A stretch of DNA of 64,000 nt from Tubulanus polymorphus (Eukaryota > Animalia > Nemertea), in contig NC_134025.1 of NCBI RefSeq assembly GCF_964204645.1, positions 31,999,561 to 32,063,560 of the forward strand. Reading direction: 5' to 3'. Of the stretch, positions 19,101-64,000 are shown piece by piece; position 1 is the first letter of the stretch, and each line of letters opens with the position of its first letter. A program made the position numbers and the translations under genes. The notes beneath the pieces were generated by a model. That model was not told the DNA's origin and did not search any database. It saw only the letters and a list, made by a program, of their open reading frames with translations.

Positions 19101-19185
19101 TACTGAACTGATTTCAAATAGATAGGTTGAAAGAATCAGAATTTTCTGGCTGCTTTTGGTTCTGAAGATGATGGATTCAATCTGA
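11400..19185 (+). repeat. Higher-order duplication, offset 4995 bp (4689 + one 306-bp trimer)
   Basis: ORF pairs 12489/17484, 12836/17831 and 13131/18126; shared rare variants gatcggtta, aaaggtgtt and gatggcttag. Confidence 0.88.
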
Positions 19186-19214
19186 AAAGATCTGTTAAGG
19201 CGTATTGAACTGAT

Positions 19215-25474: not shown

Positions 25475-28400
25475 AGGGTCCTAAAGATGATGAATTCTAT
25501 CTTAATTGATGGGTTAGGGTGAACTGAACTGATTTCAAATAGATAGGTTAAAAGAATCAGAATTTTCTGGCTGCTTTTGGTTCTGAAGATGATGGATTCA
25601 ATCTGAAAAGATGGGCTAAGGCGTATTGAACTGATTTCAAATAGATAGGTGGAAAGATTAAGAATTTTCTGGCTATTTATGCTCCTGAAGATGATTGACT
25701 CGATCTGAAATGATAGGTTAGGTAGACTGAACTGATTTCGAGTAGATGGACTGAAAGATACAGATTTTTCTTGCAAAATAGGGTCCTAAAGATGATGAGT
25801 TCTATCTTAATTGATGGGTTAGGGTGTACTGAACTGATTTCAAATAGATAGGTTGAAAGAATCAGAATTTTCTGGTTGCTTTTGGTTCTGAAGATGATGG
25901 ATTCAATCTGAAAAGATGTGTTAAGGCGTATTGAACTGATTTCAAATAGATAGGTGCAAAGATTAAGAATTTTTTAGCTATTTATGCTCCTGAAGACGAT
26001 GGACTCGATCTGAAATGATAGGTTAAGGTAGACTGAACTGATTCTGAATAGATGGACTTAAAGATACAGATTTTTCTTGCAAAATAGGGTCCTAAAGATG
26101 ATGAGTTCTATCTTAATTGATGGGTTAGGGTGTACTGAACTGATTTCAAATAGATAGGTGGAAAGATTAAGAATTTTCTGGCTATTTATGCTCCTGAAGA
26201 TGATGGACTCGATCTGAAATGATAGGTTAAGGTAAACTGAACTGATTTCGAGTAGATGGACTGAAAGATACAGATTTTTCTTGCAAAATAGGGTCCTAAA
26301 GATGATGAGTTCTATCTTAATTGATGGGTTAGGGTGTACTGAACTGATTTCAAATAGATAGGTGGAAAGATTAAGAATTTTCTGGCTATTTATGCTCCTG
26401 AAGATGATGGACTCGATCTGAAATGATAGGTTAAGGAAAACTGAAATGATTTCGAGTAGATGGACTGAAAGATACAGATTTTTTTTGCAAAATAGGGTCC
26501 TAAAGATGATGAATTCTATCTTAATTGATGGGTTAGGGTGTACTGAACTGATTTCAAATAGATAGGTTGAAAGAATCAGAATTTTCTGGCTCATTTTGGT
26601 TCTGAAGATGATGGATTCAATCTGAAAAGATGTGTTAAGGCGTATTGAACTGATTTCAAATAGATAGGTGGAAAGATTAAGAATTTTCTGGCTATTTATG
26701 CTCCTGAAGATGATGGACTCATCTGAAATGATAGGTTAAGGTAAACTGAACTGATTTCGAGTAGATGGACTGAAAGATACAGATTTTTCTTGCAAAATAG
26801 GGTCCTAAAGATGATGAGTTCTATCTTAATTGATGGGTTAGGGTGTACTGAACTGATTTCAAATAGATAGGTGGAAAGATTAAGAATTTTCTGGCTATTT
26901 ATGCTCCTGAAGATGATGGACTCGATCTGAAATGATAGGTTAAGGTAAATTGAACTGATTTAGAGCAGATGGACTGAAAGATACAGATTTTTCTTGCAAA
27001 ATAGGGTCCTAAAGATGATGAATTCTATCTTAATTGATGGGTTAGGGTGAACTGAACTGATTTCAAATAGATAGGTGGAAAGAATCAGAATTTTCTGGCT
27101 GCCTTTGGTTCTGAAGATGATGGACTCAATCTGAAAAGATGGGCTAAGGCGTATTGAACTGATTTCAAATAGATAGGTGGAAAGATTCAGAATTTTCTGG
27201 CTGCTTTTGGTTCTGAAGATGATGGATTCAATCTGAAAAGATGTGTTAAGGCGCATTGAACTGATTTCAAATAGATAGGTGGAAAGATTAAGAATTTTCT
27301 GGCTATTTATGCTCCTGAAGATGATGGACTCGATCTGAAATGATAGGTTAAGGTAAACTGAACTGATTTCGAGTAGATGGACAGAAAGATACAGATTTTT
27401 CTTGCAAAATAGGGTCCTAAAGATGATGAGTTCTATCTTAATTGATGGGTTAGGGTGTACTGAACTGATTTCAAATAGATAGGTGGAAAGATTAAGAATT
27501 TTCTGGCTATTTATGCTCCTGAAGATGATGGACTCGATCTGAAACGATAGGTTAAGGTAAACTGAACTGATTTCGAGCAGATGGACTGAAAGATACAGAT
27601 TTTTCTTGCAAAATAGGGTCCTAAAGATAATGAATTCTATCTTAATTGATGGGTTAGGGTGTACTGAACTGATTTCAAATAGATAGGTTGAAAGAATCAG
27701 AATTTTCTGTCTGCCTTTGGTTCTCAAGATGATGGACTCAATCTGAAAAGATGGGCTAAGGCGTATTGAACTGATTTCAAATAGATAGGTGGAAAGATTA
27801 AGAATTTTCTGGCTATTTATGCTCCTGAAGATGATGGACTCGATCTGAAATGATAGGTTAAGGTAAACTGAACTGATTTCGAGTAGATGGACTGAAAGAT
27901 ACAGATTTTTCTTGCAAAATAGGGTCCTAAAGATGATGAATTCTATCTTAATTGATGGGTTAGGGTGAACTGAACTGATTTCAAATAGATAGGTGGATAG
28001 AATCAGAATTTTCTGGCTGCCTTTGGTTCTGAAGATGATGGACTCAATCTGAAAAGATGGGCTAAGTCGAATTGAACTGATTTCAAATAGATAGGTGGAA
28101 AGATTAAGAATTTTCTGGCTATTTATGCTCCTGAAGATGATGGACTCGTTCTGAAATGATAGGTTAGGTAGACTGAACTGATTTCGAGTAGATGGACTGA
28201 AAGATACAGATTTTTCTTGCAAAATAGGGTCCTAAAGATGATGAGTTCTATCTTAATTGATGGGTTAGGGTGTACTGAACTGATTTCAAATAGATAGGTG
28301 GAAAGATTAAGAATTTTCTGGTTATTTATGCTCCTGAAGATGATGGACTCGATCTGAAATGATAGGTTAAGGTAAACTGAACTGATTTCGAGTAGATGGA

Positions 28401-31400
28401 CTGAAAGATACAAATTTTTCTTGCGAAATAGGGTCCTAAAGATGATGAATTCTATCTTAATTGATGGGTTAGGGTGTACTGAACTGATTTCAAATAGATA
28501 GGTTGAAAGAATCAGAATTTTCCGGCTGCTTTTGGTTCTGAAGATGATGGATTCAATCTGAAAAGATGTGTTAAGGCGTATTGAACTGATTTCAAATAGA
28601 TAGGTGGAAAGATTAAGAATTTTCTGGCTATTTATGCTCCTGAAGATGATGGACTCGATCTGAAATGATAGGTTAAGGTAGACTGAACTGATTCTGAATA
28701 GATGGACTGAAAGATACAGATTTTTCTTGCAAAATAGGGTCCTAAAGATGATGAGTTCTATCTTAATTGATGGGTTAGGGTGTACTGAATTGATTTCAAA
28801 TAGATAGGTGGAAAGATTAAGAATTTTCTGGCTATTTATGCTCCTGAAGATAATGGACTCGATCTGAAATGATAGGTTAAGGAAAACTGAACTGATTTCG
28901 AGTAGATGGACTGAAAGATACAGATTTTTCTTGCAAAATAGGGTCCTAAAGATGATGAATTCTATCTTAATTGATGGGTTAGGGTGTACTGAACTGATTT
29001 CAAATAGATAGGTTGAAAGAATCAGAATTTTCTGGCTGCTTTTGGTTCTGAAGATGATGGATTCAATCTGAAAAGATGTGTTAAGGCGTATTGAACTGAT
29101 TTCAAATAGATAGGTGGAAAGATTAAGAATTTTCTGGCTATTTATGCTCCTGAAGATGATGGACTCATCTGAAATGATAGGTTAAGGTAAACTGAACTGA
29201 TTTCGAGTAGATGGACTGAAATATACAGATTTTTCTTGCAAAATAGGGTCCTAAAGATGATGAGTTCTATCTTAATTGATGGGTTAGGGTGTACTGAACT
29301 GATTTCAAATAGATAGGTGGAAAGATTAAGAATTTTCTGGCTATTTATGCTCCTGAAGATGATGGACTCGATCTGAAATGATAGGTTAAGGTAAACTGAC
29401 CTGATTTCGAGTAGATGGACTGAAAGATACAGATTTTTCTTGCAAAATAGGGTCCTAAAGATGATGAATTATATCTTAATTGATGGGTTAGGGTGAACTG
29501 AACTGATTTCAAATAGATAGGTGGAAAGAATCAGAATTTTCTGGCTGCCTTTGGTTCTGAAGATGATGGACTCAATCTGAAAAGATGGGCTAAGGCGTAT
29601 TGAACTGATTTCAAATAGATAGGTGGAAAGATTCAGAATTTTCTGACTATTTATGCTCCTGAAGATGCTGGACTCGATCTGAAATGATAGGTTAAGGTAA
29701 ACTGAACTGATTTCGAGTAGATGGACTGAAAGATACAGATTTTTCTTGCAAAATAGGGTCCTAAAGATGATGAATTCTATCTTAATTGATGGGTTAGGGT
29801 GAACTGAACTGATTTCAAATAGATAGGTGGAAAGAATCAGAATTTTCTGGCTGCCTTTGGTTCTGAAGATGATGGACTCAATCTGAAAAGATGGGCTAAG
29901 GCGAATTGAACTGATTTCAAATAGATAGGTGGAAAGATTAAGAATTTTCTGGCTATTTATGCTCCTGAAGATGATGGACTCGATCTGAAATGATAGGTTA
30001 AGGTAAACTGAACTGATTTCGAGCAGATGGACTGAAAGATACAGATTTTTTTTGCAAAATAGGGTCCTAAAGATGATGAATTCTATCTTAATTGATGGGT
30101 TAGGGTGAACTGAACTGATTTCAAATAGATAGGTGGAAGGAATCAGAATTTTCTGGCTGCCTTTGGTTCTGAAGATGATGGACTCAATCTGAAAAGATGG
30201 GCTAAGGCGTATTGAACTGATTTCAAATAGATAGGTGGAAAGATTAAGAATTTTCTGGCTATTTATGCTCCTGAAGATGATGGACTCGATCTGAAATGAT
30301 AGGTTAAGGTAGACTGAACTGATTCTGAATAGATGGACTGAAAGATACAGATTTTTCTTGCAAAATAGGGTCCTAAAGATGATGAGTTCTATCTTAATTG
30401 ATGGGTTAGGGTGTACTGAACTGATTTCAAATAGATAGGTGGAAAGATTAAGAATTTTCTGGCTATTTATGCTCCTGAAGATGATGGACTCGATCTGAAA
30501 TGATAGGTTATGGAAAACTGAACTGATTTCGAGTAGATGGACTGAAAGATACAGATTTTTCTTGCAAAATAGGGTCCTAAAGATGATGAATTCTATCTTA
30601 ATTGATGGGTTAGGGTGTACTGAACTGATTTCAAATAGATAGGTTGAAAGAATCAGAATTTTCTGGCTGCTTTTGGTTCTGAAGATGATGGATTCAATCT
30701 GAAAAGATGTGTTAAGGCGTATTGAACTGATTTCAAATAGATAGGTGGAAAGATTAAGAATTTTCTGGCTATGTATGCTCCTGAAGAAGATGGACTCATC
30801 TGAAATGATAGGTTAAGGTAAACTGAACTGATTTCGAGTAGATGGACTGAAAGATACAGATTTTTCTTGCAAAATAGGGTCCTAAAGATGATGCGTTCTA
30901 TCTTAATTGATGGGTTAGGGTGTACTGAACTGATTTCAAATAGATAGGTGGAAAGATTAAGAATTTTCTGGCTATTTATGCTCCTGAAGATGATGGACTC
31001 GATCTGAAATGATAGGTTAAGGTAAACTGAACTGATTTCGAGCAGATGGACTGAAAGATACAGATTTTTCTTGCAAAATAGGGTCCTAAAGATGATGAAT
31101 TCTATCTTAATTGATGGGTTAGGGTGTACTGAACTGATTTCAAATAGATAGGTTGAAAGAATCAGAATTTTCTGGCTGCCTTTGGTTCTCAAGATGATGG
31201 ACTCAATCTGAAAAGATGGGCTAAGGCGTATTGAACTGATTTCAAATAGATAGGTGGAAAGATTAAGAATTTTCTGGCTATTTATGCTCCTGAAGATGAT
31301 GGACTCGATCTGAAATGATAGGTTAAGGTAAACTGAACTGATTTCGAGTAGATGGACTGAAAGATACAGATTTTTCTTGCAAAATAGGGTCCTAAAGATG

Positions 31401-34400
31401 ATGAATTCTATCTTAATTGATGGGTTAGGGTGAACTGAACTGATTTCAAATAGATAGGTGGATAGAATCAGAATTTTCTGGCTGCCTTTGGTTCTGAAGA
31501 TGATGGACTCAATCTGAAAAGATGGGCTAAGGCGAATTGAACTGATTTCAAATAGATAGGTGGAAAGATTAAGAATTTTCTGGCTATTTATGCTCCTGAA
31601 GATGATGGACTCGATCTGAAATGATAGGTTAAGGTAAACTGAACTGATTTCGAGTAGATGGACTGAAAGATACAGATTTTTCTTGCAAAATAGGGTCTTA
31701 AAGATGATGAATTTTATCTTAATTGATGGGTTAGGGTGTACTGAACTGATTTCAAATAGATAGGTTGAAAGAATCAGAATTTTCTGGCTGCTTTTGGTTC
31801 TGAAGATGATGGATTCAATCTGAAAAGATGTGTTAAGGCGTATTGAACTGATTTCAAATAGATAGGTGGAAAGATTAAGAATTTTCTGGCTATTTATGCT
31901 CCTGAAGATGATGGACTCGTTCTGAAATGATAGGTTAGGTAGACTGAACTGATTTCGAGTAGATGGACTGAAAGATACAGATTTTTCTTGCAAAATAGGG
32001 TCCTAAAGATGATGAATTCTATCTTAATTGATGGGTAAGGGTGAACTGAACTGATTTCAAATAGATAGGTGGAAAGAATCAGAATTTTCTGGCTGCCTTT
32101 GGTTCTGAAGATGATGGACTCAATCTGAAAAGATGGGCTAAGGCGTATTGAACTGATTTCAAATAGATAGGTGGAAAGATTAAGAATTTTCTGGCTATTT
32201 ATGCTCCTGAAGATGATGGACTCGATCTGAAATGATAGGTTAAGGTAAACTGAACTGATTTCGAGTAGATGGACTGAAAGATATAAATTTTTCTTGCAAA
32301 ATAGGGTCCTAAAGATGATGAGTTCTATCTTAATTGATGGGTTAGGGTGTACTGAACTGATTTCAAATAGATAGGTTGAAAGAATTAGAATTTTCTGGCT
32401 GGTTTTGGTTCTGAAGATGATGGATTCAATCTGATAAGATGTGTTAAGGCGTATTGAACTGATTTCAAATAGATAGGTGGAAAGATTAAGAATTTTCTGG
32501 CTATGTATGCTCCTGAAGAAGATGGACTCATCTGAAATGATAGGTTAAGGTAAACTGAACTGATTTCGAGTAGATGGACTGAAAGATACAGATTTTTCTT
32601 GCAAAATAGGGTCCTAAAGATGATGAATTCTATCTTAATTGATGGGTTAGGGTGAACTGAACTGATTTCAAATAGATAGGTGGATAGAATCAGAATTTTC
32701 TGGCTGCCTTTGGTTCTGAAGATGATGGACTCAATCTGAAAAGATGGGCTAAGGCGAATTGAACTGATTTCAAATAGATAGGTGGAAAGATTAAGAATTT
32801 TCTGGCTATTTATGCTCCTGAAGATGATGGACTAAGTCTGAAATGATAGGTTAAGGTAAACTGAACTGATTTCGAGCAGATGGACTGAAAGATACAGATT
32901 TTTCTTGCAAAATAGGGTCCTAAAGATGATGAATTCTATCTTAATTGATGGGTTAGGGTGAACTGAACTGATTTCAAATAGATAGGTGGAAAGAATCAGA
33001 ATTTTCTGGCTGCCTTTGGTTCTGAAGATGATGGACTCAATCTGAAAAGATGGGCTAAGGCGAATTGAACTGATTTCAAATAGATAGGTGGAAAGATTAA
33101 GAATTTTCTGGCTATTTATGCTCCTGAAGATGATGGACTCGATCTGAAATGATAGGTTAAGGTAAACTGAACTGATTTCGAGTAGATGGACAGAAAGATA
33201 CAGATTTTTCTTGCAAAATAGGGTCCTAAAGATGATGAGTTCTATCTTAATTGATGGGTTAGGGTGTACTGAACTGATTTCAAATAGATAGGTGGAAAGA
33301 TTAAGAATTTTCTGGCTATTTATGCTCCTGAAGATGATGGACTCGATCTGAAATGATAGGTTAAGGTAAACTGAACTGATTTCGAGTAGATGGACTGAAA
33401 GATACAGATTTTTCTTGCAAAATAGGGTCCTAAAGATGATGAATTCTATCTTAATTGATGGGTTAGGGTGTACTGAACTGATTTCAAATAGATAGGTTGA
33501 AAGAATCAGAATTTTCTGGCTGCTTTTGGTTCTGAAGATGATGGATTCAATCTGAAAAGATGTGTTAAGGCGTATTGAACTGATTTCAAATAGATAGGTG
33601 GAAAGATTAAGAATTTTCTGGCTATTTATGCTCCTGAAGATGATGGACTCGATCTGAAATGATAGGTTAAGGTAAACTGAACTGATTTCGAGCAGATGGA
33701 CTGAAAGATACAGATTTTTTTTGCAAAATAGGGTCCTAAAGATGATGAATTCTATCTTAATTGATGGGTTAGGGTGAACTGAACTGATTTCAAATAGATA
33801 GGTGGAAAGAATCAGAATTTTCTGGCTGCCTTTGGTTCTGAAGATGATGGACTCAATCTGAAAAGATGGGCTAAGGCGTATTGAACTGATTTCAAATAGA
33901 TAGGTGGAAAGATTAAGAATTTTCTGGCTATTTATGCTCCTGAAGATGATGGACTCGATCTGAAATGATAGGTTAAGGTAAACTGAACTGATTTCGAGTA
34001 GATGGACTGAAAGATACAAATTTTTCTTGCAAAATAGGGATCTAAAGATGATGAATTCTATCTTAATTAATGGGTTAGGGTGTACTGAACTGATTTCAAA
34101 TAGATAGGTTTAAAGAATCAGAATTTTCTTGCTGCTTTTGGTTCTGAAGATGATGGATTCAATCTGAAAAGATGTGTTGAGGCGTATTGAACTGATTTCA
34201 AATAGATAGGTGGAAAGATTAAGAATTTTCTGGCTATTTGTGCTCCTGAAGATGATGGACTCGATCTGAAATGATAGGTTAAGGTAGACTGAACTAATTC
34301 TGAATAGATGGACTGAAAGATACAGATTTTTCTTGCAAAATAGGGTCCTAAAGATGATGAGTTCTATCTTAATTGATGGGTTAGGGTGTACTGAACTGAT

Positions 34401-37207
34401 TTCAAATAGATAGGTGGAAAGATTAAGAATTTTCTGGCTATTTATGCTCCTGAAGATGATGGACTCGATCTGAAATGATAGGTTAAGGAAAACTGAACTG
34501 ATTTCGAGTAGATGGACTGAAAGATACAGATTTTTCTTGCAAAATAGGGTCCTAAAGATGATGAATTCTATCTTAATTGATGGGTTAGGGTGTACTGAAC
34601 TGATTTCAAATAGATAGGTGGAAAGAATCAGAATTTTCTGGCTGCCATTGGTTCTGAAGATGATGGACTCAATCTGAAAAGATGGGCTAAGGCGAATTGA
34701 ACTGATTTCAAATAGATAGGTGGAAAGATTAAGAATTTTCTGGCTATTTATGCTCCTGAAGATGATGGACTCGATCTGAAATGATAGGTTAAGGTAGACT
34801 GAACTGATTTCGAGTAGATGGACTGAAAGATACAAATTTTTCTTGCAAAATAGGGTCCTAAAGATGATGAATTCTATCTTAATTGATGGGTTAGGGTGTA
34901 CTGAACTGATTTCAAATAGATAGGTTTAAAGAATCAGAATTTTCTGGCTGCTTTTGGTTCTGAAGATGATGGACTCAATCTGAAAAGATGGGCTAAGGCG
35001 TATTGAACTGATTTCAAATAGATAGGTGGAAAGATTAAGAATTTTCTGGCTATTTATGCTCCTGAAGATGATGGACTCGATCTGAAATGATAGGTTAAGG
35101 TAAACTGAACTGATTTCGAGTAGATGGACTGAAAGATACAAATTTTTCTTGCAAAATAGGGTCCTAAAGATGATGAATTCTATCTTAATTGATGGGTAAG
35201 GGTGTACTGAACTGATTTCAAATAGATAGGTTGAAAGAATCAGAATTTTCTTGCTGCTTTTGGTTCTGAAGATGATGGATTCAATCTGAAAAGATGTGTT
35301 AAGGCGCATTGAACTGATTTCAAATAGATAGGTGGAAAGATTAAGAATTTTCTGGCTATTTATGCTCCTGAAGATGATGGACTCGATCTGAAATGATAGG
35401 TTTAGGTAAACTGAACTGATTTCGAGCAGATGGACTGAAAGATACAGATTTTTCTTGCAAAATAGGGTCCTAAAGATGATGAATTCTATCTTAATTGATG
35501 GGTTAGGGTAAACTGAACTGATTTCAAATAGATAGGTGGAAAGAATCAGAATTTTCTGGCTGCCTTTGGTTCTGAAGATGATGGACTCAATCTGAAAAGA
35601 TGGGCTAAGGCATATTGGACTGATTTCAAATAGATAGGTGGAAAGATTAAGAATTTTCTGGCTATTTATGCTCCTGAAGATGATGGACTCGATCTGAAAT
35701 GATAGGTTAAGGTAAACTGAACTGATTTCGAGTAGATGGACTGAAAGATACAGATTTTTCTTGCAAAATAGGGTCCTAAAGATGATGAATTCTATCTTAA
35801 TTGATGGGTTAGGGTGTACTGAACTGATTTCAAATAGATAGGTGGAAAGATTAAGAATTTTCTGGCTATTTATGCTCCTGAAGATGATGGACTCGATCTG
35901 AAATGATAGGTTAAGGAAAACTGAACTGATTTCGAGTAGATGGACTGAAAGATACAGATTTTTCTTGCAAAATAGGGTCCTAAAGATGATGAATTCTATC
36001 TTAATTGATGGGTTAGGGTGTACTGAACTGATTTCAAATAGATAGGTTGAAAGAATCAGAATTTTCTGGCTGCTTTTGGTTCTGAAGATGATGGATTCAA
36101 TCTGAAAAGATGTGTTAAGGCGTATTGAACTGATTTCAAATAGATAGGTGGAAAGATTAAGAATTTTCTGGCTATTTATGCTCCTGAAGATGATGGACTC
36201 ATCTGAAATGATAGGTTAAGGTAAACTGAACTGATTTCGAGTAGATGGACTGAAAGATACAGATTTTTCTTGCAAAATAGGGTCCTAAAGATGATGAGTT
36301 CTATCTTAATTGATGGGTTAGGGTGTACTGAACTGATTTCAAATAGATAGGTGGAAAGATTAAGAATTTTCTGGCTATTTATGCTCCTGAAGATGATGGA
36401 CTCGATCTGAAATGATAGGTTAAGGTAAATTGAACTGATTTAGAGCAGATGGACTGAAAGATACAGATTTTTCTTGCAAAATAGGGTCCTAAAGATGATG
36501 AATTCTATCTTAATTGATGGGTTAGGGTGAACTGAACTTATTTCAAATAGATAGGTGGAAAGAATCAGAATTTTCTGGCTGCCTTTGGTTTTGAAGATGA
36601 TGGACTCAATCTGAAAAGATGGGCTAAGGCGTATTGAACTGATTTCAAATAGATAGGTGGAAAGATTCAGAATTTTCTGGCTGCTTTTGGTTCTGAAGAT
36701 GATGGATTCAATCTGAAAAGATGTGTTAAGGCGCATTGAACTGATTTCAAATAGATAGGTGGAAAGATTAAGAATTTTCTGGCTATTTATGCTCCTGAAG
36801 ATGATGGACTCGATCTGAAATGATAGGTTAAGGTAAACTGAACTGATTTCGAGTAGATGGACAGAAAGATACAGATTTTTCTTGCAAAATAGGGTCCTAA
36901 AGATGATTAGTTCTATCTTAATTGATGGGTTAGGGTGTACTGAACTGATTTCAAATAGATAGGTGGAAAGATTAAGAATTTTCTGGCTATTTATGCTCCT
37001 GAAGATGATGGACTCGATCTGAAATGATAGGTTAAGGAAAACTGAACTGATTTCGAGTAGATGGACTGAAAGATACAGATTTTTCTTGCAAAATAGGGTC
37101 CTAAAGATGATGAATTCTATCTTAATTGATGGGTTAGGGTGTACTGAACTGATTTCAAATAGATAGGTGGAAAGAATCAGAATTTTCTGGCTGCCATTGG
37201 TTCTGAA

Positions 37208-37221
37208 ATCATTATCTATTG
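37208..37221. other. Inversion junction J1 (+ to -) with 14-nt insertion atcattatctattg
   Basis: ggttctgaa|atcattatctattg|tatctatttgaaatcag; sequence from 37222 is the reverse complement of 36757 backwards (coordinate sum 73979, matching ORF ends 36440 and 37539). Confidence 0.93.
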
Positions 37222-40200: not shown

Positions 40201-41719
40201 CGCCTTAGCCCATCTTTTCAGATTGAGTCCATCATCTTGAGAACCAAAGGCAGCCAGAAAATTCTGATTCTTTCAACCTATCTATTTGAAATCAGTTCAG
40301 TACACCCTAACCCATCAATTAAGATAGAATTCATCATCTTTAGGACCCTATTTTGCAAGAAAAATCTGTATCTTTCAGTCCATCTGCTCGAAATCAGTTC
40401 AGTTTACCTTAACCTATCATTTCAGATCGAGTCCATCATCTTCAGGAGCATAAATAGCCAGAAAATTCTTAATCTTTCCACCTATCTATTTGAAATCAGT
40501 TCAGTACACCCTAACCCATCAATTAAGATAGAACTCATCATCTTTAGGACCCTATTTTGCAAGAAAAATCTGTATCTTTCAGTCCATCTACTCGAAATCA
40601 GTTCAGTTTACCTTAACCTATCATTTCAGATGAGTCCATCTTCTTCAGGAGCATACATAGCCAGAAAATTCTTAATCTTTCCACCTATCTATTTGAAATC
40701 AGTTCAATACGCCTTAACACATCTTTTCAGATTGAATCCATCATCTTCAGAACCAAAAGCAGCCAGAAAATTCTGATTCTTTCAACCTATCTATTTGAAA
40801 TCAGTTCAGTACACCCTAACCCATCAATTAAGATAGAACTCATCATCTTTAGGACCCTATTTTGCAAGAAAAATCTGTATCTTTCAGTCCATCTATTCAG
40901 AATCAGTTCAGTCTACCTTAACCTATCATTTCAGATCGAGTCCATCATCTTCAGGAGCATAAATAGCCAGAAAATTCTTAATCTTTCCACCTATCTATTT
41001 GAAATCAGTTCAATACGCCTTAGCCCATCTTTTCAGATTGAGTCCATCATCTTCAGAACCAAAGGCAGCCAGAAAATTCTGATTCCTTCCACCTATCTAT
41101 TTGAAATCAGTTCAGTTCACCCTAACCCATCAATTAAGATAGAATTCATCATCTTTAGGACCCTATTTTGCAAAAAAAATCTGTATCTTTCAGTCCATCT
41201 GCTCGAAATCAGTTCAGTTTACCTTAACCTATCATTTCAGATCGAGTCCATCATCTTCAGGAGCATAAATAGCCAGAAAATTCTTAATCTTTCCACCTAT
41301 CTATTTGAAATCAGTTCAATTCGCCTTAGCCCATCTTTTCAGATTGAGTCCATCATCTTCAGAACCAAAGGCAGCCAGAAAATTCTGATTCTTTCCACCT
41401 ATCTATTTGAAATCAGTTCAGTTCACCCTAACCCATCAATTAAGATAGAATTCATCATCTTTAGGACCCTATTTTGCAAGAAAAATCTGTATCTTTCAGT
41501 CCATCTACTCGAAATCAGTTCAGTTTACCTTAACCTATCATTTCAGATCGAGTCCAGCATCTTCAGGAGCATAAATAGTCAGAAAATTCTGAATCTTTCC
41601 ACCTATCTATTTGAAATCAGTTCAATACGCCTTAGCCCATCTTTTCAGATTGAGTCCATCATCTTCAGAACCAAAGGCAGCCAGAAAATTCTGATTCTTT
41701 CCACCTATCTATTTGAAAT
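37222..41719 (-). repeat. Satellite block 2, inverted (~4.5 kb)
   Basis: Reverse-complement monomers (catcatcttcag, gaaatcagttca); ORFs switch to the + strand. Confidence 0.97.
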
Positions 41720-45474: not shown

Positions 45475-45481
45475 ACCTAAC
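45475..45481. other. Inversion junction J3 (+ to -) with 7-nt insertion acctaac
   Basis: gtgaactgaactga|acctaac|ccacctatctatttg; sequence from 45482 mirrors 43250 backwards (sum 88732). Confidence 0.93.
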
Positions 45482-48848: not shown

Positions 48849-48855
48849 ACCTAAC

Positions 48856-50387: not shown

Positions 50388-53300
50388 TTTCAAATAGATA
50401 GGTGGAAAGAATCAGAATTTTCTGGCTGCCTTTGGTTCTGAAGATGATGGACTCAATCTGAAAAGATGGGCTAAGGCGTATTGAACTGATTTCAAATAGA
50501 TAGGTGGAAAGATTCAGAATTTTCTGACTATTTATGCTCCTGAAGATGCTGGACTCGATCTGAAATGATAGGTTAAGGTAAACTGAACTGATTTCGAGTA
50601 GATGGACTGAAAGATACAGATTTTTCTTGCAAAATAGGGTCCTAAAGATGATGAATTCTATCTTAATTGATGGGTTAGGGTGAACTGAACTGATTTCAAA
50701 TAGATAGGTGGAAAGAATCAGAATTTTCTGGCTGCCTTTGGTTCTGAAGATGATGGACTCAATCTGAAAAGATGGGCTAAGGCGAATTGAACTGATTTCA
50801 AATAGATAGGTGGAAAGATTAAGAATTTTCTGGCTATTTATGCTCCTGAAGATGATGGACTCGATCTGAAATGATAGGTTAAGGTAAACTGAACTGATTT
50901 CGAGCAGATGGACTGAAAGATACAGATTTTTTTTGCAAAATAGGGTCCTAAAGATGATGAATTCTATCTTAATTGATGGGTTAGGGTGAACTGAACTGAT
51001 TTCAAATAGATAGGTGGAAGGAATCAGAATTTTCTGGCTGCCTTTGGTTCTGAAGATGATGGACTCAATCTGAAAAGATGGGCTAAGGCGTATTGAACTG
51101 ATTTCAAATAGATAGGTGGAAAGATTAAGAATTTTCTGGCTATTTATGCTCCTGAAGATGATGGACTCGATCTGAAATGATAGGTTAAGGTAGACTGAAC
51201 TGATTCTGAATAGATGGACTGAAAGATACAGATTTTTCTTGCAAAATAGGGTCCTAAAGATGATGAGTTCTATCTTAATTGATGGGTTAGGGTGTACTGA
51301 ACTGATTTCAAATAGATAGGTGGAAAGATTAAGAATTTTCTGGCTATTTATGCTCCTGAAGATGATGGACTCGATCTGAAATGATAGGTTATGGAAAACT
51401 GAACTGATTTCGAGTAGATGGACTGAAAGATACAGATTTTTCTTGCAAAATAGGGTCCTAAAGATGATGAATTCTATCTTAATTGATGGGTTAGGGTGTA
51501 CTGAACTGATTTCAAATAGATAGGTTGAAAGAATCAGAATTTTCTGGCTGCTTTTGGTTCTGAAGATGATGGATTCAATCTGAAAAGATGTGTTAAGGCG
51601 TATTGAACTGATTTCAAATAGATAGGTGGAAAGATTAAGAATTTTCTGGCTATGTATGCTCCTGAAGAAGATGGACTCATCTGAAATGATAGGTTAAGGT
51701 AAACTGAACTGATTTCGAGTAGATGGACTGAAAGATACAGATTTTTCTTGCAAAATAGGGTCCTAAAGATGATGAGTTCTATCTTAATTGATGGGTTAGG
51801 GTGTACTGAACTGATTTCAAATAGATAGGTGGAAAGATTAAGAATTTTCTGGCTATTTATGCTCCTGAAGATGATGGACTCGTTCTGAAATGATAGGTTA
51901 GGTAGACTGAACTGATTTCGAGTAGATGGACTGAAAGATACAGATTTTTCTTGCAAAATAGGGTCCTAAAGATGATGAATTCTATCTTAATTGATGGGTA
52001 AGGGTGAACTGAACTGATTTCAAATAGATAGGTGGAAAGAATCAGAATTTTCTGGCTGCCTTTGGTTCTGAAGATGATGGACTCAATCTGAAAAGATGGG
52101 CTAAGGCGTATTGAACTGATTTCAAATAGATAGGTGGAAAGATTAAGAATTTTCTGGCTATTTATGCTCCTGAAGATGATGGACTCGATCTGAAATGATA
52201 GGTTAAGGTAAACTGAACTGATTTCGAGTAGATGGACTGAAAGATATAAATTTTTCTTGCAAAATAGGGTCCTAAAGATGATGAGTTCTATCTTAATTGA
52301 TGGGTTAGGGTGTACTGAACTGATTTCAAATAGATAGGTTGAAAGAATTAGAATTTTCTGGCTGGTTTTGGTTCTGAAGATGATGGATTCAATCTGATAA
52401 GATGTGTTAAGGCGTATTGAACTGATTTCAAATAGATAGGTGGAAAGATTAAGAATTTTCTGGCTATGTATGCTCCTGAAGAAGATGGACTCATCTGAAA
52501 TGATAGGTTAAGGTAAACTGAACTGATTTCGAGTAGATGGACTGAAAGATACAGATTTTTCTTGCAAAATAGGGTCCTAAAGATGATGAATTCTATCTTA
52601 ATTGATGGGTTAGGGTGAACTGAACTGATTTCAAATAGATAGGTGGATAGAATCAGAATTTTCTGGCTGCCTTTGGTTCTGAAGATGATGGACTCAATCT
52701 GAAAAGATGGGCTAAGGCGAATTGAACTGATTTCAAATAGATAGGTGGAAAGATTAAGAATTTTCTGGCTATTTATGCTCCTGAAGATGATGGACTAAGT
52801 CTGAAATGATAGGTTAAGGTAAACTGAACTGATTTCGAGCAGATGGACTGAAAGATACAGATTTTTCTTGCAAAATAGGGTCCTAAAGATGATGAATTCT
52901 ATCTTAATTGATGGGTTAGGGTGAACTGAACTGATTTCAAATAGATAGGTGGAAAGAATCAGAATTTTCTGGCTGCCTTTGGTTCTGAAGATGATGGACT
53001 CAATCTGAAAAGATGGGCTAAGGCGAATTGAACTGATTTCAAATAGATAGGTGGAAAGATTAAGAATTTTCTGGCTATTTATGCTCCTGAAGATGATGGA
53101 CTCGATCTGAAATGATAGGTTAAGGTAAACTGAACTGATTTCGAGTAGATGGACAGAAAGATACAGATTTTTCTTGCAAAATAGGGTCCTAAAGATGATG
53201 AGTTCTATCTTAATTGATGGGTTAGGGTGTACTGAACTGATTTCAAATAGATAGGTGGAAAGATTAAGAATTTTCTGGCTATTTATGCTCCTGAAGATGA

Positions 53301-56300
53301 TGGACTCGATCTGAAATGATAGGTTAAGGTAAACTGAACTGATTTCGAGTAGATGGACTGAAAGATACAGATTTTTCTTGCAAAATAGGGTCCTAAAGAT
53401 GATGAATTCTATCTTAATTGATGGGTTAGGGTGTACTGAACTGATTTCAAATAGATAGGTTGAAAGAATCAGAATTTTCTGGCTGCTTTTGGTTCTGAAG
53501 ATGATGGATTCAATCTGAAAAGATGTGTTAAGGCGTATTGAACTGATTTCAAATAGATAGGTGGAAAGATTAAGAATTTTCTGGCTATTTATGCTCCTGA
53601 AGATGATGGACTCGATCTGAAATGATAGGTTAAGGTAAACTGAACTGATTTCGAGCAGATGGACTGAAAGATACAGATTTTTTTTGCAAAATAGGGTCCT
53701 AAAGATGATGAATTCTATCTTAATTGATGGGTTAGGGTGAACTGAACTGATTTCAAATAGATAGGTGGAAAGAATCAGAATTTTCTGGCTGCCTTTGGTT
53801 CTGAAGATGATGGACTCAATCTGAAAAGATGGGCTAAGGCGTATTGAACTGATTTCAAATAGATAGGTGGAAAGATTAAGAATTTTCTGGCTATTTATGC
53901 TCCTGAAGATGATGGACTCGATCTGAAATGATAGGTTAAGGTAAACTGAACTGATTTCGAGTAGATGGACTGAAAGATACAAATTTTTCTTGCAAAATAG
54001 GGATCTAAAGATGATGAATTCTATCTTAATTAATGGGTTAGGGTGTACTGAACTGATTTCAAATAGATAGGTTTAAAGAATCAGAATTTTCTTGCTGCTT
54101 TTGGTTCTGAAGATGATGGATTCAATCTGAAAAGATGTGTTGAGGCGTATTGAACTGATTTCAAATAGATAGGTGGAAAGATTAAGAATTTTCTGGCTAT
54201 TTGTGCTCCTGAAGATGATGGACTCGATCTGAAATGATAGGTTAAGGTAGACTGAACTAATTCTGAATAGATGGACTGAAAGATACAGATTTTTCTTGCA
54301 AAATAGGGTCCTAAAGATGATGAGTTCTATCTTAATTGATGGGTTAGGGTGTACTGAACTGATTTCAAATAGATAGGTTGAAAGAATCAGAATTTTCTGG
54401 CTGCTTTTGGTTCTGAAGATGATGGATTCAATCTGAAAAGATGTGTTAAGGCGTATTGAACTGATTTCAAATAGATAGGTGGAAAGATTAAGAATTTTCT
54501 GGCTATTTATGCTCCTGAAGATGATGGACTCGATCTGAAATGATAGGTTAAGGTAAACTGAACTGATTTCGAGCAGATGGACTGAAAGATACAGATTTTT
54601 TTTGCAAAATAGGGTCCTAAAGATGATGAATTCTATCTTAATTGATGGGTTAGGGTGAACTGAACTGATTTCAAATAGATAGGTGGAAAGAATCAGAATT
54701 TTCTGGCTGCCTTTGGTTCTGAAGATGATGGACTCAATCTGAAAAGATGGGCTAAGGCGTATTGAACTGATTTCAAATAGATAGGTGGAAAGATTAAGAA
54801 TTTTCTGGCTATTTATGCTCCTGAAGATGATGGACTCGATCTGAAATGATAGGTTAAGGTAAACTGAACTGATTTCGAGTAGATGGACTGAAAGATACAA
54901 ATTTTTCTTGCAAAATAGGGATCTAAAGATGATGAATTCTATCTTAATTAATGGGTTAGGGTGTACTGAACTGATTTCAAATAGATAGGTTTAAAGAATC
55001 AGAATTTTCTTGCTGCTTTTGGTTCTGAAGATGATGGATTCAATCTGAAAAGATGTGTTGAGGCGTATTGAACTGATTTCAAATAGATAGGTGGAAAGAT
55101 TAAGAATTTTCTGGCTATTTGTGCTCCTGAAGATGATGGACTCGATCTGAAATGATAGGTTAAGGTAGACTGAACTAATTCTGAATAGATGGACTGAAAG
55201 ATACAGATTTTTCTTGCAAAATAGGGTCCTAAAGATGATGAGTTCTATCTTAATTGATGGGTTAGGGTGTACTGAACTGATTTCAAATAGATAGGTGGAA
55301 AGATTAAGAATTTTCTGGCTATTTATGCTCCTGAAGATGATGGACTCGATCTGAAATGATAGGTTAAGGTAAACTGAATTGATTTCGAGTAGATGGACTG
55401 AAAGATACAGATTTTTCTTGCAAAATAGGGTCCTAAAGATGATGAATTCTATCTTAATTGATGGGTTAGGGTGTACTGAACTGATTTCAAATAGATAGGT
55501 TGAAAGAATCAGAATTTTCTGGCTGCTTTTGGTTCTGAAGATGATGGACTCAATCTGAAAAGATGGGCTAAGGCGTATTGAACTGATTTCAAATAGATAG
55601 GTGTAAAGATTAAGAATTTTCTGGCTATTTATGCTCCTGAAGATGAAGGACTCGATCTGAAATGATAGGTTAAGGTAAACTGAACTGATTTCGAGTAGAT
55701 GGACTGAAAGATACAGATTTTTCTTGCAAAATAGGGTCCTAAAGATGATGAATTCTATCTTAATTGATGGGTTAGGGTGAACTGAACAGATTTCAAATAG
55801 ATAGGTGGAAAGAATCAGAATTTTCTGGCTGCCTTTGGTTCTGAAGATGATGGACTCAATCTGAAAAGATGTGTTAAGGCGTATTGAACTGATTTCAAAT
55901 AGATAGGTGGAAAGAATCAGAATTTTCTGGCTGCTTTTGGTTCTGAAGATGATGGATTCAATCTGAAAAGATGTGTTAAGGCGTATTGAACTGATTTCAA
56001 ATAGATAGGTGGAAAGATTAAGAATTTTCTGGCTATTTATGCTCCTGAAGATGATAAACTCGATCTGAAATGATAGGTTAAGGTAAACTGAATTGATTTC
56101 GAGTAGATGGACTGAAAGATACAGATTTTTCTTGCAAAATAGGGTCCTAAAGATGATGAATTCTATCTTAATTGATGGGTTAGGGTGTACTGAACTGATT
56201 TCAAATAGATAGGTTGAAAGAATCAGAATTTTCTGGCTGCTTTTGGTTCTGAAGATGATGGATTCAATCTGAAAAGATGTGTTAAGGCGTATTGAACTGA

Positions 56301-58632
56301 TTTCAAATAGATAGGTGGAAAGATTAAGAATTTTCTGGCTATTTATGCTCCTGAAGATGATTGACTCGATCTGAAATGATAGGTTAGGTAGACTGAACTG
56401 ATTTCGAGTAGATGGACTGAAAGATACAGATTTTTCTTGCAAAATAGGGTCCTAAAGATGATGAGTTCTATCTTAATTGATGGGTTAGGGTGTACTGAAC
56501 TGATTTCAAATAGATAGGTGGAAAGATTAAGAATTTTCTGGCTATTTATGCTCCTGAAGATGATGGACTCGATCTGAAATGATAGGTTAAGGTAAACTGA
56601 ACTGATTTCGAGCAGATGGATTGAAAGATACAGATTTTTCTTGCAAAATAGGGTCCTAAAGATGATGAATTCTATCTTAATTGATGGGTTAGGGTGTACT
56701 GAACTGATTTCAAATAGATAGGTTGAAAGAATCAGAATTTTCTGGCTGCCTTTGGTTCTCAAGATGATGGACTCAATCTGAAAAGATGGGCTAAGGCGTA
56801 TTGAACTGATTTCAAATAGATAGGTGGAAAGATTAAGAATTTTCTGGCTATTTATGCTCCTGAAGATGATGGACTCGATCTGAAATGATAGGTTAAGGTA
56901 AACTGAACTGATTTCGAGTAGATGGACTGAAAGATACAGATTTTTCTTGCAAAATAGGGTCCTAAAGATGATGAATTCTATCTTAATTGATGGGTTAGGG
57001 TGAACTGAACTGATTTCAAATAGATAGGTGGATAGAATCAGAATTTTCTGGCTGCCTTTGGTTCTGAAGATGATGGACTCAATCTGAAAAGATGGGCTAA
57101 GGCGAATTGAACTGATTTCAAATAGATAGGTGGAAAGATTAAGAATTTTCTGGCTATTTATGCTCCTGAAGATGATGGACTCGATCTGAAATGATAGGTT
57201 AAGGTAAACTGAACTGATTTCGAGTAGATGGACTGAAAGATACAGATTTTTCTTGCAAAATAGGGTCCTAAAGATGATGAATTCTATCTTAATTGATGGG
57301 TTAGGGTGTACTGAACTGATTTCAAATAGATAGGTTGAAAGAATCAGAATTTTCTGGCTGCTTTTGGTTCTGAAGATGATGGATTCAATCTGAAAAGATG
57401 CGTTAAGGCGTATTGAACTGATTTCAAATAGATAGGTGGAAAGATTAAGAATTTTCTGGCTATTTATGCTCCTGAAGATGATGGACTCGATCTGAAATGA
57501 TAGGTTAAGGTAAACTGAACTGATTTCGAGTAGATGGACTTAAAGATACAGATTTTTCTTGCAAAATAGGGTCCTAAAGATGATGAGTTCTATCTTAATT
57601 GATGGGTTAGGGTGTACTGAACTGATTTCAAATAGATAGGTTGAAAGATTAAGAATTTTCTGGCTATTTATGCTCCTGAAGATGATGGACTCGATCTGAA
57701 ATGATAGGTTAAGGTAAACTGAACTGATTTCGAGCAGATGGACTGAAAGATACAGATTTTTCTTGCAAAATAGGGTCCTAAAGATGATGAATTCTATCTT
57801 AATTGATGGGTTAGGGTGAACTGAACTGATTTCAAATAGATAGGTGGAAAGAATCAGAATTTTCTGGCTGCCTTTGGTTCTGAAGATGATGGACTCAATC
57901 TGAAAAGATGGGCTAAGGCGTATTGAACTGATTTCAAATAGATAGGTGTAAAGATTAAGAATTTTCTGGCTATTTATGCTCCTGAAGATGAAGGACTCGA
58001 TCTGAAATGATAGGTTAAGGTAAACTGAACTGATTTCGAGTAGATGGACTGAAAGATACAGATTTTTCTTGCAAAATAGGGTCCTAAAGATGATGAATTC
58101 TATCTTAATTGATGGGTTAGGGTGTACTGAACTGATTTCAAATAGATAGGTTGAAAGAATCAGAATTTTCTGGCTGCTTTTGGTTCTGAAGATGATGGAT
58201 TCAATCTGAAAAGATGGGCTAAGGCGAATTGAACTGATTTCAAATAGATAGGTGGAAAGATTAAGAATTTTCTGGCTATTTATGCTCCTGAAGATGATGG
58301 ACTCGATCTGAAATGATAGGTTAAGGTAAACTGAACTGATTTCGAGTAGATGGACTGAAAGATACAGATTTTTCTTGCAAAATAGGGTCCTAAAGATGAT
58401 GAATTCTATCTTAATTGATGGGTTAGGGTGTACTGAACTGATTTCAAATAGATAGGTTGAAAGAATCAGAATTTTCTGGCTGCTTTTGGTTCTGAAGATG
58501 ATGGATTCAATCTGAAAAGATGTGTTAAGGCGTATTGAACTGATTTCAAATAGATAGGTGGAAAGATTAAGAATTTTCTGGCTATTTATGCTCCTGAAGA
58601 TGATAAACTCGATCTGAAATGATAGGTTAAGG
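50388..58632 (+). repeat. Satellite block 7, + orientation
   Basis: Starts as a copy of 29507 onward (offset 20881, then 19963 after a 918-bp deletion; ORFs 32832/52795) and ends at gataggttaagg. Confidence 0.96.
53410..55290 (+). repeat. 918-bp (9-monomer) tandem duplication
   Basis: Rare variants gggatctaaag, aattaatggg, ggtttaaag, tgttgaggcg and atttgtgctc each occur twice, 918 bp apart (e.g. 54001 and 54919); mirrored in the inverted arm (ORFs 60242/61160). Confidence 0.9.
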
Positions 58633-58712
58633 GTTAGGGTTAGGGTTAGGGTTAGGGTTAGGGTTAGGGTTAGGGTTAGGGTTAGGGTTAGGGTTAGGGT
58701 TAGGGTTAGGGT
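58630..58712 (+). repeat. Interstitial telomeric tract, 13 perfect TTAGGG units (58634-58711), at the last inversion junction
   Basis: gataggttaAGGG(TTAGGG)13T ctgtatc; no variant repeats; G-strand on +. Confidence 0.99.
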
Positions 58713-61700
58713 CTGTATCTTTCAGTCCATCTACTCGAAATCAGTTCAGTCTACCTAACCTATCATTTCAGATCGAGTCAATCATCTTCAGGAGCATAAA
58801 TAGCCAGAAAATTCTTAATCTTTCCACCTATCTATTTGAAATCAGTTCAATACGCCTTAACACATCTTTTCAGATTGAATCCATCATCTTCAGAACCAAA
58901 AGCAGCCAGAAAATTCTGATTCTTTCAACCTATCTATTTGAAATCAGTTCAGTACACCCTAACCCATCAATTAAGATAGAATTCATCATCTTTAGGACCC
59001 TATTTTGCAAGAAAAATCTGTATCTTTCAGTCCATCTACTCGAAATCAATTCAGTTTACCTTAACCTATCATTTCAGATCGAGTTTATCATCTTCAGGAG
59101 CATAAATAGCCAGAAAATTCTTAATCTTTCCACCTATCTATTTGAAATCAGTTCAATACGCCTTAACACATCTTTTCAGATTGAATCCATCATCTTCAGA
59201 ACCAAAAGCAGCCAGAAAATTCTGATTCTTTCCACCTATCTATTTGAAATCAGTTCAATACGCCTTAACACATCTTTTCAGATTGAGTCCATCATCTTCA
59301 GAACCAAAGGCAGCCAGAAAATTCTGATTCTTTCCACCTATCTATTTGAAATCTGTTCAGTTCACCCTAACCCATCAATTAAGATAGAATTCATCATCTT
59401 TAGGACCCTATTTTGCAAGAAAAATCTGTATCTTTCAGTCCATCTACTCGAAATCAGTTCAGTTTACCTTAACCTATCATTTCAGATCGAGTCCTTCATC
59501 TTCAGGAGCATAAATAGCCAGAAAATTCTTAATCTTTACACCTATCTATTTGAAATCAGTTCAATACGCCTTAGCCCATCTTTTCAGATTGAGTCCATCA
59601 TCTTCAGAACCAAAAGCAGCCAGAAAATTCTGATTCTTTCAACCTATCTATTTGAAATCAGTTCAGTACACCCTAACCCATCAATTAAGATAGAATTCAT
59701 CATCTTTAGGACCCTATTTTGCAAGAAAAATCTGTATCTTTCAGTCCATCTACTCGAAATCAATTCAGTTTACCTTAACCTATCATTTCAGATCGAGTCC
59801 ATCATCTTCAGGAGCATAAATAGCCAGAAAATTCTTAATCTTTCCACCTATCTATTTGAAATCAGTTCAGTACACCCTAACCCATCAATTAAGATAGAAC
59901 TCATCATCTTTAGGACCCTATTTTGCAAGAAAAATCTGTATCTTTCAGTCCATCTATTCAGAATTAGTTCAGTCTACCTTAACCTATCATTTCAGATCGA
60001 GTCCATCATCTTCAGGAGCACAAATAGCCAGAAAATTCTTAATCTTTCCACCTATCTATTTGAAATCAGTTCAATACGCCTCAACACATCTTTTCAGATT
60101 GAATCCATCATCTTCAGAACCAAAAGCAGCAAGAAAATTCTGATTCTTTAAACCTATCTATTTGAAATCAGTTCAGTACACCCTAACCCATTAATTAAGA
60201 TAGAATTCATCATCTTTAGATCCCTATTTTGCAAGAAAAATTTGTATCTTTCAGTCCATCTACTCGAAATCAGTTCAGTTTACCTTAACCTATCATTTCA
60301 GATCGAGTCCATCATCTTCAGGAGCATAAATAGCCAGAAAATTCTTAATCTTTCCACCTATCTATTTGAAATCAGTTCAATACGCCTTAGCCCATCTTTT
60401 CAGATTGAGTCCATCATCTTCAGAACCAAAGGCAGCCAGAAAATTCTGATTCTTTCCACCTATCTATTTGAAATCAGTTCAGTTCACCCTAACCCATCAA
60501 TTAAGATAGAATTCATCATCTTTAGGACCCTATTTTGCAAAAAAAATCTGTATCTTTCAGTCCATCTGCTCGAAATCAGTTCAGTTTACCTTAACCTATC
60601 ATTTCAGATCGAGTCCATCATCTTCAGGAGCATAAATAGCCAGAAAATTCTTAATCTTTCCACCTATCTATTTGAAATCAGTTCAATACGCCTTAACACA
60701 TCTTTTCAGATTGAATCCATCATCTTCAGAACCAAAAGCAGCCAGAAAATTCTGATTCTTTCAACCTATCTATTTGAAATCAGTTCAGTACACCCTAACC
60801 CATCAATTAAGATAGAACTCATCATCTTTAGGACCCTATTTTGCAAGAAAAATCTGTATCTTTCAGTCCATCTATTCAGAATTAGTTCAGTCTACCTTAA
60901 CCTATCATTTCAGATCGAGTCCATCATCTTCAGGAGCACAAATAGCCAGAAAATTCTTAATCTTTCCACCTATCTATTTGAAATCAGTTCAATACGCCTC
61001 AACACATCTTTTCAGATTGAATCCATCATCTTCAGAACCAAAAGCAGCAAGAAAATTCTGATTCTTTAAACCTATCTATTTGAAATCAGTTCAGTACACC
61101 CTAACCCATTAATTAAGATAGAATTCATCATCTTTAGATCCCTATTTTGCAAGAAAAATTTGTATCTTTCAGTCCATCTACTCGAAATCAGTTCAGTTTA
61201 CCTTAACCTATCATTTCAGATCGAGTCCATCATCTTCAGGAGCATAAATAGCCAGAAAATTCTTAATCTTTCCACCTATCTATTTGAAATCAGTTCAATA
61301 CGCCTTAGCCCATCTTTTCAGATTGAGTCCATCATCTTCAGAACCAAAGGCAGCCAGAAAATTCTGATTCTTTCCACCTATCTATTTGAAATCAGTTCAG
61401 TTCACCCTAACCCATCAATTAAGATAGAATTCATCATCTTTAGGACCCTATTTTGCAAAAAAAATCTGTATCTTTCAGTCCATCTGCTCGAAATCAGTTC
61501 AGTTTACCTTAACCTATCATTTCAGATCGAGTCCATCATCTTCAGGAGCATAAATAGCCAGAAAATTCTTAATCTTTCCACCTATCTATTTGAAATCAGT
61601 TCAATACGCCTTAACACATCTTTTCAGATTGAATCCATCATCTTCAGAACCAAAAGCAGCCAGAAAATTCTGATTCTTTCAACCTATCTATTTGAAATCA

Positions 61701-64000
61701 GTTCAGTACACCCTAACCCATCAATTAAGATAGAATTCATCATCTTTAGGACCCTATTTTGCAAGAAAAATCTGTATCTTTCAGTCCATCTACTCGAAAT
61801 CAGTTCAGTTTACCTTAACCTATCATTTCAGATCGAGTCCATCATCTTCAGGAGCATAAATAGCCAGAAAATTCTTAATCTTTCCACCTATCTATTTGAA
61901 ATCAGTTCAGTACACCCTAACCCATCAATTAAGATAGAACTCATCATCTTTAGGACCCTATTTTGCAAGAAAAATCTGTATCTTTCTGTCCATCTACTCG
62001 AAATCAGTTCAGTTTACCTTAACCTATCATTTCAGATCGAGTCCATCATCTTCAGGAGCATAAATAGCCAGAAAATTCTTAATCTTTCCACCTATCTATT
62101 TGAAATCAGTTCAATTCGCCTTAGCCCATCTTTTCAGATTGAGTCCATCATCTTCAGAACCAAAGGCAGCCAGAAAATTCTGATTCTTTCCACCTATCTA
62201 TTTGAAATCAGTTCAGTTCACCCTAACCCATCAATTAAGATAGAATTCATCATCTTTAGGACCCTATTTTGCAAGAAAAATCTGTATCTTTCAGTCCATC
62301 TGCTCGAAATCAGTTCAGTTTACCTTAACCTATCATTTCAGACTTAGTCCATCATCTTCAGGAGCATAAATAGCCAGAAAATTCTTAATCTTTCCACCTA
62401 TCTATTTGAAATCAGTTCAATTCGCCTTAGCCCATCTTTTCAGATTGAGTCCATCATCTTCAGAACCAAAGGCAGCCAGAAAATTCTGATTCTATCCACC
62501 TATCTATTTGAAATCAGTTCAGTTCACCCTAACCCATCAATTAAGATAGAATTCATCATCTTTAGGACCCTATTTTGCAAGAAAAATCTGTATCTTTCAG
62601 TCCATCTACTCGAAATCAGTTCAGTTTACCTTAACCTATCATTTCAGATGAGTCCATCTTCTTCAGGAGCATACATAGCCAGAAAATTCTTAATCTTTCC
62701 ACCTATCTATTTGAAATCAGTTCAATACGCCTTAACACATCTTATCAGATTGAATCCATCATCTTCAGAACCAAAACCAGCCAGAAAATTCTAATTCTTT
62801 CAACCTATCTATTTGAAATCAGTTCAGTACACCCTAACCCATCAATTAAGATAGAACTCATCATCTTTAGGACCCTATTTTGCAAGAAAAATTTATATCT
62901 TTCAGTCCATCTACTCGAAATCAGTTCAGTTTACCTTAACCTATCATTTCAGATCGAGTCCATCATCTTCAGGAGCATAAATAGCCAGAAAATTCTTAAT
63001 CTTTCCACCTATCTATTTGAAATCAGTTCAATACGCCTTAGCCCATCTTTTCAGATTGAGTCCATCATCTTCAGAACCAAAGGCAGCCAGAAAATTCTGA
63101 TTCTTTCCACCTATCTATTTGAAATCAGTTCAGTTCACCCTTACCCATCAATTAAGATAGAATTCATCATCTTTAGGACCCTATTTTGCAAGAAAAATCT
63201 GTATCTTTCAGTCCATCTACTCGAAATCAGTTCAGTCTACCTAACCTATCATTTCAGAACGAGTCCATCATCTTCAGGAGCATAAATAGCCAGAAAATTC
63301 TTAATCTTTCCACCTATCTATTTGAAATCAGTTCAGTACACCCTAACCCATCAATTAAGATAGAACTCATCATCTTTAGGACCCTATTTTGCAAGAAAAA
63401 TCTGTATCTTTCAGTCCATCTACTCGAAATCAGTTCAGTTTACCTTAACCTATCATTTCAGATGAGTCCATCTTCTTCAGGAGCATACATAGCCAGAAAA
63501 TTCTTAATCTTTCCACCTATCTATTTGAAATCAGTTCAATACGCCTTAACACATCTTTTCAGATTGAATCCATCATCTTCAGAACCAAAAGCAGCCAGAA
63601 AATTCTGATTCTTTCAACCTATCTATTTGAAATCAGTTCAGTACACCCTAACCCATCAATTAAGATAGAATTCATCATCTTTAGGACCCTATTTTGCAAG
63701 AAAAATCTGTATCTTTCAGTCCATCTACTCGAAATCAGTTCAGTTTTCCATAACCTATCATTTCAGATCGAGTCCATCATCTTCAGGAGCATAAATAGCC
63801 AGAAAATTCTTAATCTTTCCACCTATCTATTTGAAATCAGTTCAGTACACCCTAACCCATCAATTAAGATAGAACTCATCATCTTTAGGACCCTATTTTG
63901 CAAGAAAAATCTGTATCTTTCAGTCCATCTATTCAGAATCAGTTCAGTCTACCTTAACCTATCATTTCAGATCGAGTCCATCATCTTCAGGAGCATAAAT
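58712..64000 (-). repeat. Satellite block 8, inverted copy of 51142-56430, continuing beyond the window
   Basis: Constant coordinate sum 115142 for the junction (58712/56430) and three ORF pairs (54073/61069, 52795/62347, 51534/63608); rare variants mirrored. Confidence 0.97.

Follow-up and report, generated by a model that had tools for sequence, protein, structure and literature searches.

We analysed a stretch of 64,000 nucleotides from the nemertean Tubulanus polymorphus (RefSeq assembly GCF_964204645.1, contig NC_134025.1, positions 31,999,561 to 32,063,560 of the forward strand; hereafter the window), which consists from end to end of one 102-bp satellite, save for a telomere tract and two short inserts. 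The tract, G(TTAGGG)13 at 58633..58711 on the plus strand, marks the point where an exact inverted duplication turns back and likely represents what is left of a new, too-short telomere. Our preferred explanation, to which we assign a probability of roughly 0.45, is that a break in the array may have been healed by telomerase and that the short end then fused to its own resected sister. The telomerase origin of the tract, its former role as a cap and its erosion are what we infer, and the sequence alone would also be compatible with a one-step insertion or with a capture.

The satellite comprises three monomer classes (A, B and C, with a mutual identity of 75-83%), mostly ordered C-B-A as a 306-bp higher-order unit. 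It stops at ...GGTTAAGG (58632), at position 96 of a class A monomer, and is followed directly by a G (58633) and 13 perfect TTAGGG units (58634-58711). The interrupted monomer matches an intact copy at 55988 for 96 bases, after which the latter runs on as satellite; this monomer variant, also present at 10441 and 15130, represents the unbroken form of the break site. The initial annotation had described the stop within monomer A, the satellite's AGG standing in register with the repeat, and a G-strand running 5' to 3' away from the left array, all of which hold up against the intact copy and the sequence itself; this polarity, together with a start in register, is the arrangement looked for in de novo addition. 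That the 13 perfect units adjoin an undegenerated monomer is also counted in favor of the preferred explanation. The tract is the sole one in the window, since TTAGGGTTAGGG at up to one mismatch gave 13 matches, all inside the tract and all on the plus strand (shuffle mean 0.12; 0 of 100 shuffles reached 13). A repeat search of both strands of the window found no opposing CCCTAA tract, as had been claimed, and the opposing TTAGGG/CCCTAA arrangement of a head-to-head telomere-telomere fusion is therefore missing.

The telomere-like seed proposed in the initial annotation stood only in part. A 3-nt AGG overlap between the satellite end and the repeat register is present (58630..58632, plus strand) as a candidate priming seed, but overlaps of at least 3 nt on the left side arose in 5.3% of 200,000 simulated blunt joins of satellite to repeat (P ~0.053), so that the overlap is only modestly beyond chance and suggestive as seed evidence. 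As many as 12.3% of the 50,953 plus-strand positions end in at least three letters that fit some phase of the repeat, and seven of the last nine letters match the repeat at the break site, as they do at 4.1% of positions. Moreover, a better seed went unused: class C monomers, which terminate in the word GGGTTAGGG, offer a perfect 10-nt seed, and the tract begins in class A. An origin of the tract by slippage, with expansion of the word native to the satellite, was rejected on the same ground and because none of the 211 GGGTTAGGG words in the window, all of them in class C monomers or their inverted copies, reaches two units; monomer C carries just a 1.5-unit telomere-like word. The array is likewise distinct from heterochromatic interstitial telomeric sequence (het-ITS) satellites, such as 2PI-telo, given that a single tract occurs in 64 kb and does not belong to the repeating unit.

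What the initial annotation had not seen is that the inverted arm beyond the tract is an exact mirror of 51142-56430, and that the seven orientation switches in the window derive from four distinct junctions (J1-J4). At J4 the tract joins the inverted satellite arm (58712..64000, minus strand, running off the window) through one shared T (58712..58712), as previously described. A 1-nt right overlap is expected in 38% of random joins (P 0.38) and thus lies at the level of chance, which would favor near-blunt end-joining over a primed fold-back. Priming of the fold-back by pairing of the telomeric 3' end was considered and gained no support, as the template after 56430 gives one complementary base and a nearby CCTAA lies about 20 bases off the junction. 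When the reverse complement of the arm was slid along the window, it showed 0 mismatches in 5289 bases against 51142..56430 on the plus strand, the next best ungapped placement having 813. The template carries a private deletion and a duplication, each of 918 bp, together with a change of array subtype close to 55370, and the 400-mers across these three rearrangements each occur once on the plus and once on the minus strand, solely in this arm pair within the window. The exact mirror and the three private 400-mers together point to the same molecule or its sister as the fusion partner, since a homologue would need the same rearranged haplotype. The earlier proposal of a healed break fused to a sister or homologous copy is in this way supported by the geometry as regards addition followed by fusion, with the partner narrowed to sister or self; the sequence would be identical had one chromatid simply turned back on itself. 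A spacer of 2202 bp (56431..58632, plus strand) is absent from the inverted arm, and this spacer and the 79-bp tract occur on one side of J4 only, making a total offset of 2281 bp. The spacers of J3 (43251-45474) and J4 (56431-58632) are nearly equal in length, at 2224 and 2202 bp, possibly by chance.

With these features, J4 appears to behave as a very short telomere fused asymmetrically to its sister chromatid would. In human cells in crisis, intra-chromosomal fusions were almost exclusively between one repeat-bearing and one resected chromatid of a single allele (PMC4864465). Human short-telomere fusions had a mean deletion of 2.44 +/- 1.54 kb, overlaps of 1-12 nt (mean 1.7) and a mean of 5.8 repeats (maximum 43), with repeats on both sides in 1 of 298 (PMC2847243). 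Both sets of fusions resemble J4 in having one allele copied head to head, with a few repeats confined to one side and a kb-scale loss from the other chromatid (PMC4864465; PMC2847243); overlaps are minimal there and here, that of J4 being at the level of chance; here we find a same-allele inverted duplication, 13 units on one side and a deletion of 2202 bp against the published mean of 2.44 kb. They differ in that the telomere-adjacent DNA is here a tandem satellite and the tract has no variant repeats, whereas the bases of old human telomeres contain such variants (PMC2847243), and in that our record is a genomic sequence as opposed to single-molecule polymerase chain reaction products from cultured cells. 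In cancer genomes, the formation of a neotelomere followed by fusion is a defined (third) class, with short tracts at the fusions (PMC11293586). The standard orientation of the tract, the internal sequence on both sides and the short tract at the fusion are alike, but the published example read held about 1750 bp of repeat between two distant loci, in contrast to 79 bp and an inverted self copy 2.2 kb away in our case (PMC11293586).

J4 is probably the latest of four nested fold-backs. The uninverted array (1..37207, plus strand, C-B-A units of 306 bp with the G-rich strand on plus) ends at J1 (37208..37221), where a 14-bp insert joins 37207 to an inverted copy starting from 36757, with a spacer of 450 bp. 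J2 (41719..41719) joins the equivalents of 29506 and 28299 with a 1-nt overlap and a spacer of 1207 bp, and its reverse-complement copies at 47013 and 50387 bring it to three occurrences at mirror-consistent spacing. J3 (45475..45481) holds a 7-bp insert, turns back at what corresponds to 32054 and retraces the molecule from 43250 in reverse, leaving a spacer of 2224 bp; a second copy (48849-48855) arose through tandem duplication. This duplication of 3374 bp (44346-51192) takes in the whole inverted block with both junctions, and inversion junctions can thus be amplified as part of the array. The J2 copy 1531 bp after J3 lies at the template distance, meaning that J3 mirrors through J2 and is the later of the two; J4 mirrors the rearrangements of its template and is later than them, and J1 would by inference be the earliest. 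The nesting of the left fold-backs could follow the expectation of breakage-fusion-bridge (BFB) cycles, as is observed for J3 through J2. Local templated inserts are usually ascribed to polymerase-theta end-joining, and those of J1 (8-mers from the flanks) and J3 (a 9-mer of the right flank), with sources within 100 bp, resemble them; a telomeric origin of the J3 insert was rejected, as nine bases match the adjoining satellite flank. Few differences separate the arms (2 in 4675 compared bases for J1, 2 in 3756 for J2 and 0 in 2466 for J3), which marks the junctions as young. The three distinct sites of difference (28852, 30894 and 36539) are singletons in the uninverted arm, the copies carrying the common letter, and could have arisen by mutation afterwards, from a donor haplotype that was nearly identical or as errors of the consensus.

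The preferred explanation would then run as follows. J1, J2 and J3 would have come from one break and sister fusion after another, at intervals of a few kb, after which the last broken end may have recombined onto another part of the same satellite, with the switch near 55370; indeed, the terminal 3.26 kb of the left arm (55370..58632, plus strand) is not a collinear continuation and holds variants like those of 1-20000 (29 of its 31 monomers have an exact copy there, against 17 of 31 in 28000-37200). Telomerase would have extended the end terminating in AGG, and that end, whether from the outset or later, would have measured just 13 repeats and been unprotected. Following replication, one sister would have lost its repeats and 2.2 kb, and both would have been end-joined with almost no microhomology. 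Related behavior has been reported elsewhere, with clustered palindromic junctions arising from BFB cycles (PMC3834830), fold-back inverted duplications having spacers of 766-70,466 bp with a median of 3.4 kb (PMC3907307), and BFB cycles occurring in the subtelomeric repeat arrays of a telomerase mutant alga (PMC10620057). Our junctions resemble these systems in their kb-scale spacers (here 0.45-2.2 kb), local templated inserts and several nested junctions, but differ from them in that there a telomere caps the far end and inverted microhomology is mostly 2-8 nt, whereas here the repeats lie inside the junction and the overlap is 1 nt or absent (PMC3907307; PMC3834830; PMC10620057). For breaks near telomeres, healing and sister fusion have been described as alternative outcomes (PMC3463808).

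Public reads bear on the satellite and on J1. We checked three runs of one study, which match 37000-45700 in part (0.27-0.37 of 186 words), and a fourth run chosen by its species label. Across 1934 Mb of raw reads from run X4, the depth over one 306-bp unit was about 14,000, equal to about 0.22% of bases, from which we conclude that the satellite is a real and abundant component of that organism. Joints on opposite strands in the read mapping at J1 were discarded as evidence because the reference holds both satellite orientations.

Several observations weigh against the preferred explanation. The evidence for J4 comes from the assembled sequence, and the AGG seed (P ~0.05) is weaker than first stated. 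In all four public runs, depth over the J1 insert was zero (37210-37219). This counts against J1 as a fixed multi-copy feature but tests a single-copy junction only weakly, given that reading covered about 12% of X4, that rare variants are lost from contigs and that the samples appear to differ from the source of the window. A pure BFB string would further predict a J1 copy after J3, which is missing as the arm switches near 55370 to other array sequence, and two stretches kept in the later arm, of 2550 and 204 bp, are absent from the first inverted one. Breaks 4-10 kb apart could also be expected from repeated template switching in one replication event, and a fusion implies a dicentric chromosome needing resolution, of which the window bears no sign. 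In the literature, only about 10% of cancer neotelomere sites fit a telomerase seed model, the authors leaning to capture by recombination or end-joining (PMC11293586), and the fusion sites of the alga retained no telomere repeats (PMC10620057).

Two other origins of the tract, each of which we regard as unlikely, would dispense with a telomere built at this break. The 79 nt of repeat, made by telomerase or derived from a telomeric fragment, could have been attached to the broken end of one sister and linked in the same step to the resected end of the other, never having acted as a cap. The hallmark of inserted interstitial telomeric sequences is a short, pure tract with 1-6 nt in register (PMC7215372), and the horse tracts had in-register bases at 31 of 40 loci, at least 3 nt of them at 14 of 40 (PMC7215372); our tract agrees with such insertions at double-strand breaks in being short and pure, with 3 nt in register at its 5' flank and a deletion at the site (PMC7215372; PMC2246262). 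It also occurs on one arm only, and the short inserts of J1 and J3 demonstrate that insertion at joints occurs in this array, although these are locally templated satellite and not telomeric. Inserted tracts, however, typically have flanks collinear with the empty site (inversions were found at 3 of 66 horse loci; PMC7215372), while the flanks here are inverted copies, in a fold-back whose 2.2-kb asymmetry equals the mean deletion at short-telomere fusions. Alternatively, the satellite might abut telomeres elsewhere, and the broken BFB arm could have copied such an end (3.26 kb plus telomere) by homologous strand invasion at about 55370, the telomere later being shortened and fused; the tract would in that case be older than, and independent of, these breaks. 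The last 3.26 kb are indeed of another array subtype, and the satellite's G-rich strand is that of the tract; together with its GGGTTAGGG words, this is what DNA lying next to a telomere might show. Horse acrocentrics have satellites directly beside TTAGGG arrays (PMC13477059). Against such a capture, the junction lacks variant repeats or a degenerate transition. No telomeric loose end appeared among the matches listed (24 of 274) for reads aligned to a single satellite unit; little weight attaches to this, because such reads are filtered.

We hold it to be quite improbable that J4 is an artefact, whether of a chimeric long read or amplification product, or of an assembly that joined other sequence onto a true chromosome end. 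A chimera of the same molecule gives a perfect mirror, J1 was unseen in all four runs, and the three base differences among the older arms, being one-arm singletons, could be consensus errors. Sequencer fold-back artefacts, on the other hand, are defined as turning within 200 bp (PMC12338684), as compared with an offset of 2281 bp at J4, and nanopore fold-backs mostly carry about 35 adapter bases (10.64898/2026.06.24.734375), whereas all 79 inserted bases here are repeat. Chimeras from multiple displacement amplification mostly overlap by 5-8 nt and peak at distances of 250-300 nt (PMC9984789); the junctions here have a 1-nt overlap (J2 and J4) or inserts (J1 and J3), though their distances fall within the under-10-kb range of such chimeras (PMC9984789). 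In addition, the window contains no N, the three occurrences of J2 are spaced consistently with mirroring, and deletions and duplications of monomer multiples set the arms apart.

The array itself is regular, with a monomer length of 102 bp in 566 of the 611 pieces obtained by cutting at a conserved motif, and longer periods of 4689 bp (46 monomers) and 4995 bp (49 monomers) are superimposed on the 306-bp unit at 1597-18218. The satellite has a strong G-skew on the plus strand (GC skew of ~0.38 at 1-37207), and diverged versions of GGGTTAGGG are present in the A and B monomers with the same polarity as the telomere tract. The satellite may be telomere-associated or telomere-derived.

The event class proposed here is already known, having been described in human cells; what the present case adds is its unusually well-resolved setting and an order of events that can be read. 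So far, fusions in which one chromatid retains a few repeats have mostly been read from cultured or tumor cells. Among the titles and abstract openings searched, none describes a telomeric stub at the apex of nested fold-backs within a satellite of a non-mutant organism, which is no proof of absence. If the structure is somatic or an artefact, it is mainly a warning that inverted satellite blocks in assemblies need read-level checks. If it is real and inherited, one locus would record three fold-backs, a recombinational switch, the addition of a telomere and then its fusion, and the orientation switches in satellite arrays would acquire a testable origin with exact predicted positions of junctions beyond the window. 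Continued past the window end, the mirror would place copies of J2 at 64755, 68129 and 73423, the J3 insert at 66287-66293 and 69661-69667, and the J1 insert at 77921-77934. It seems doubtful to us that the window preserves, in a normal organism, a heritable, base-resolved record of four BFB rounds, all within a single satellite array. Were it true, strand switches in satellites could be scars of telomere crisis, a satellite with telomere-like words in its monomers could be healed by telomerase at internal breaks, and an end of 13 repeats would be too short to prevent fusion in this lineage.

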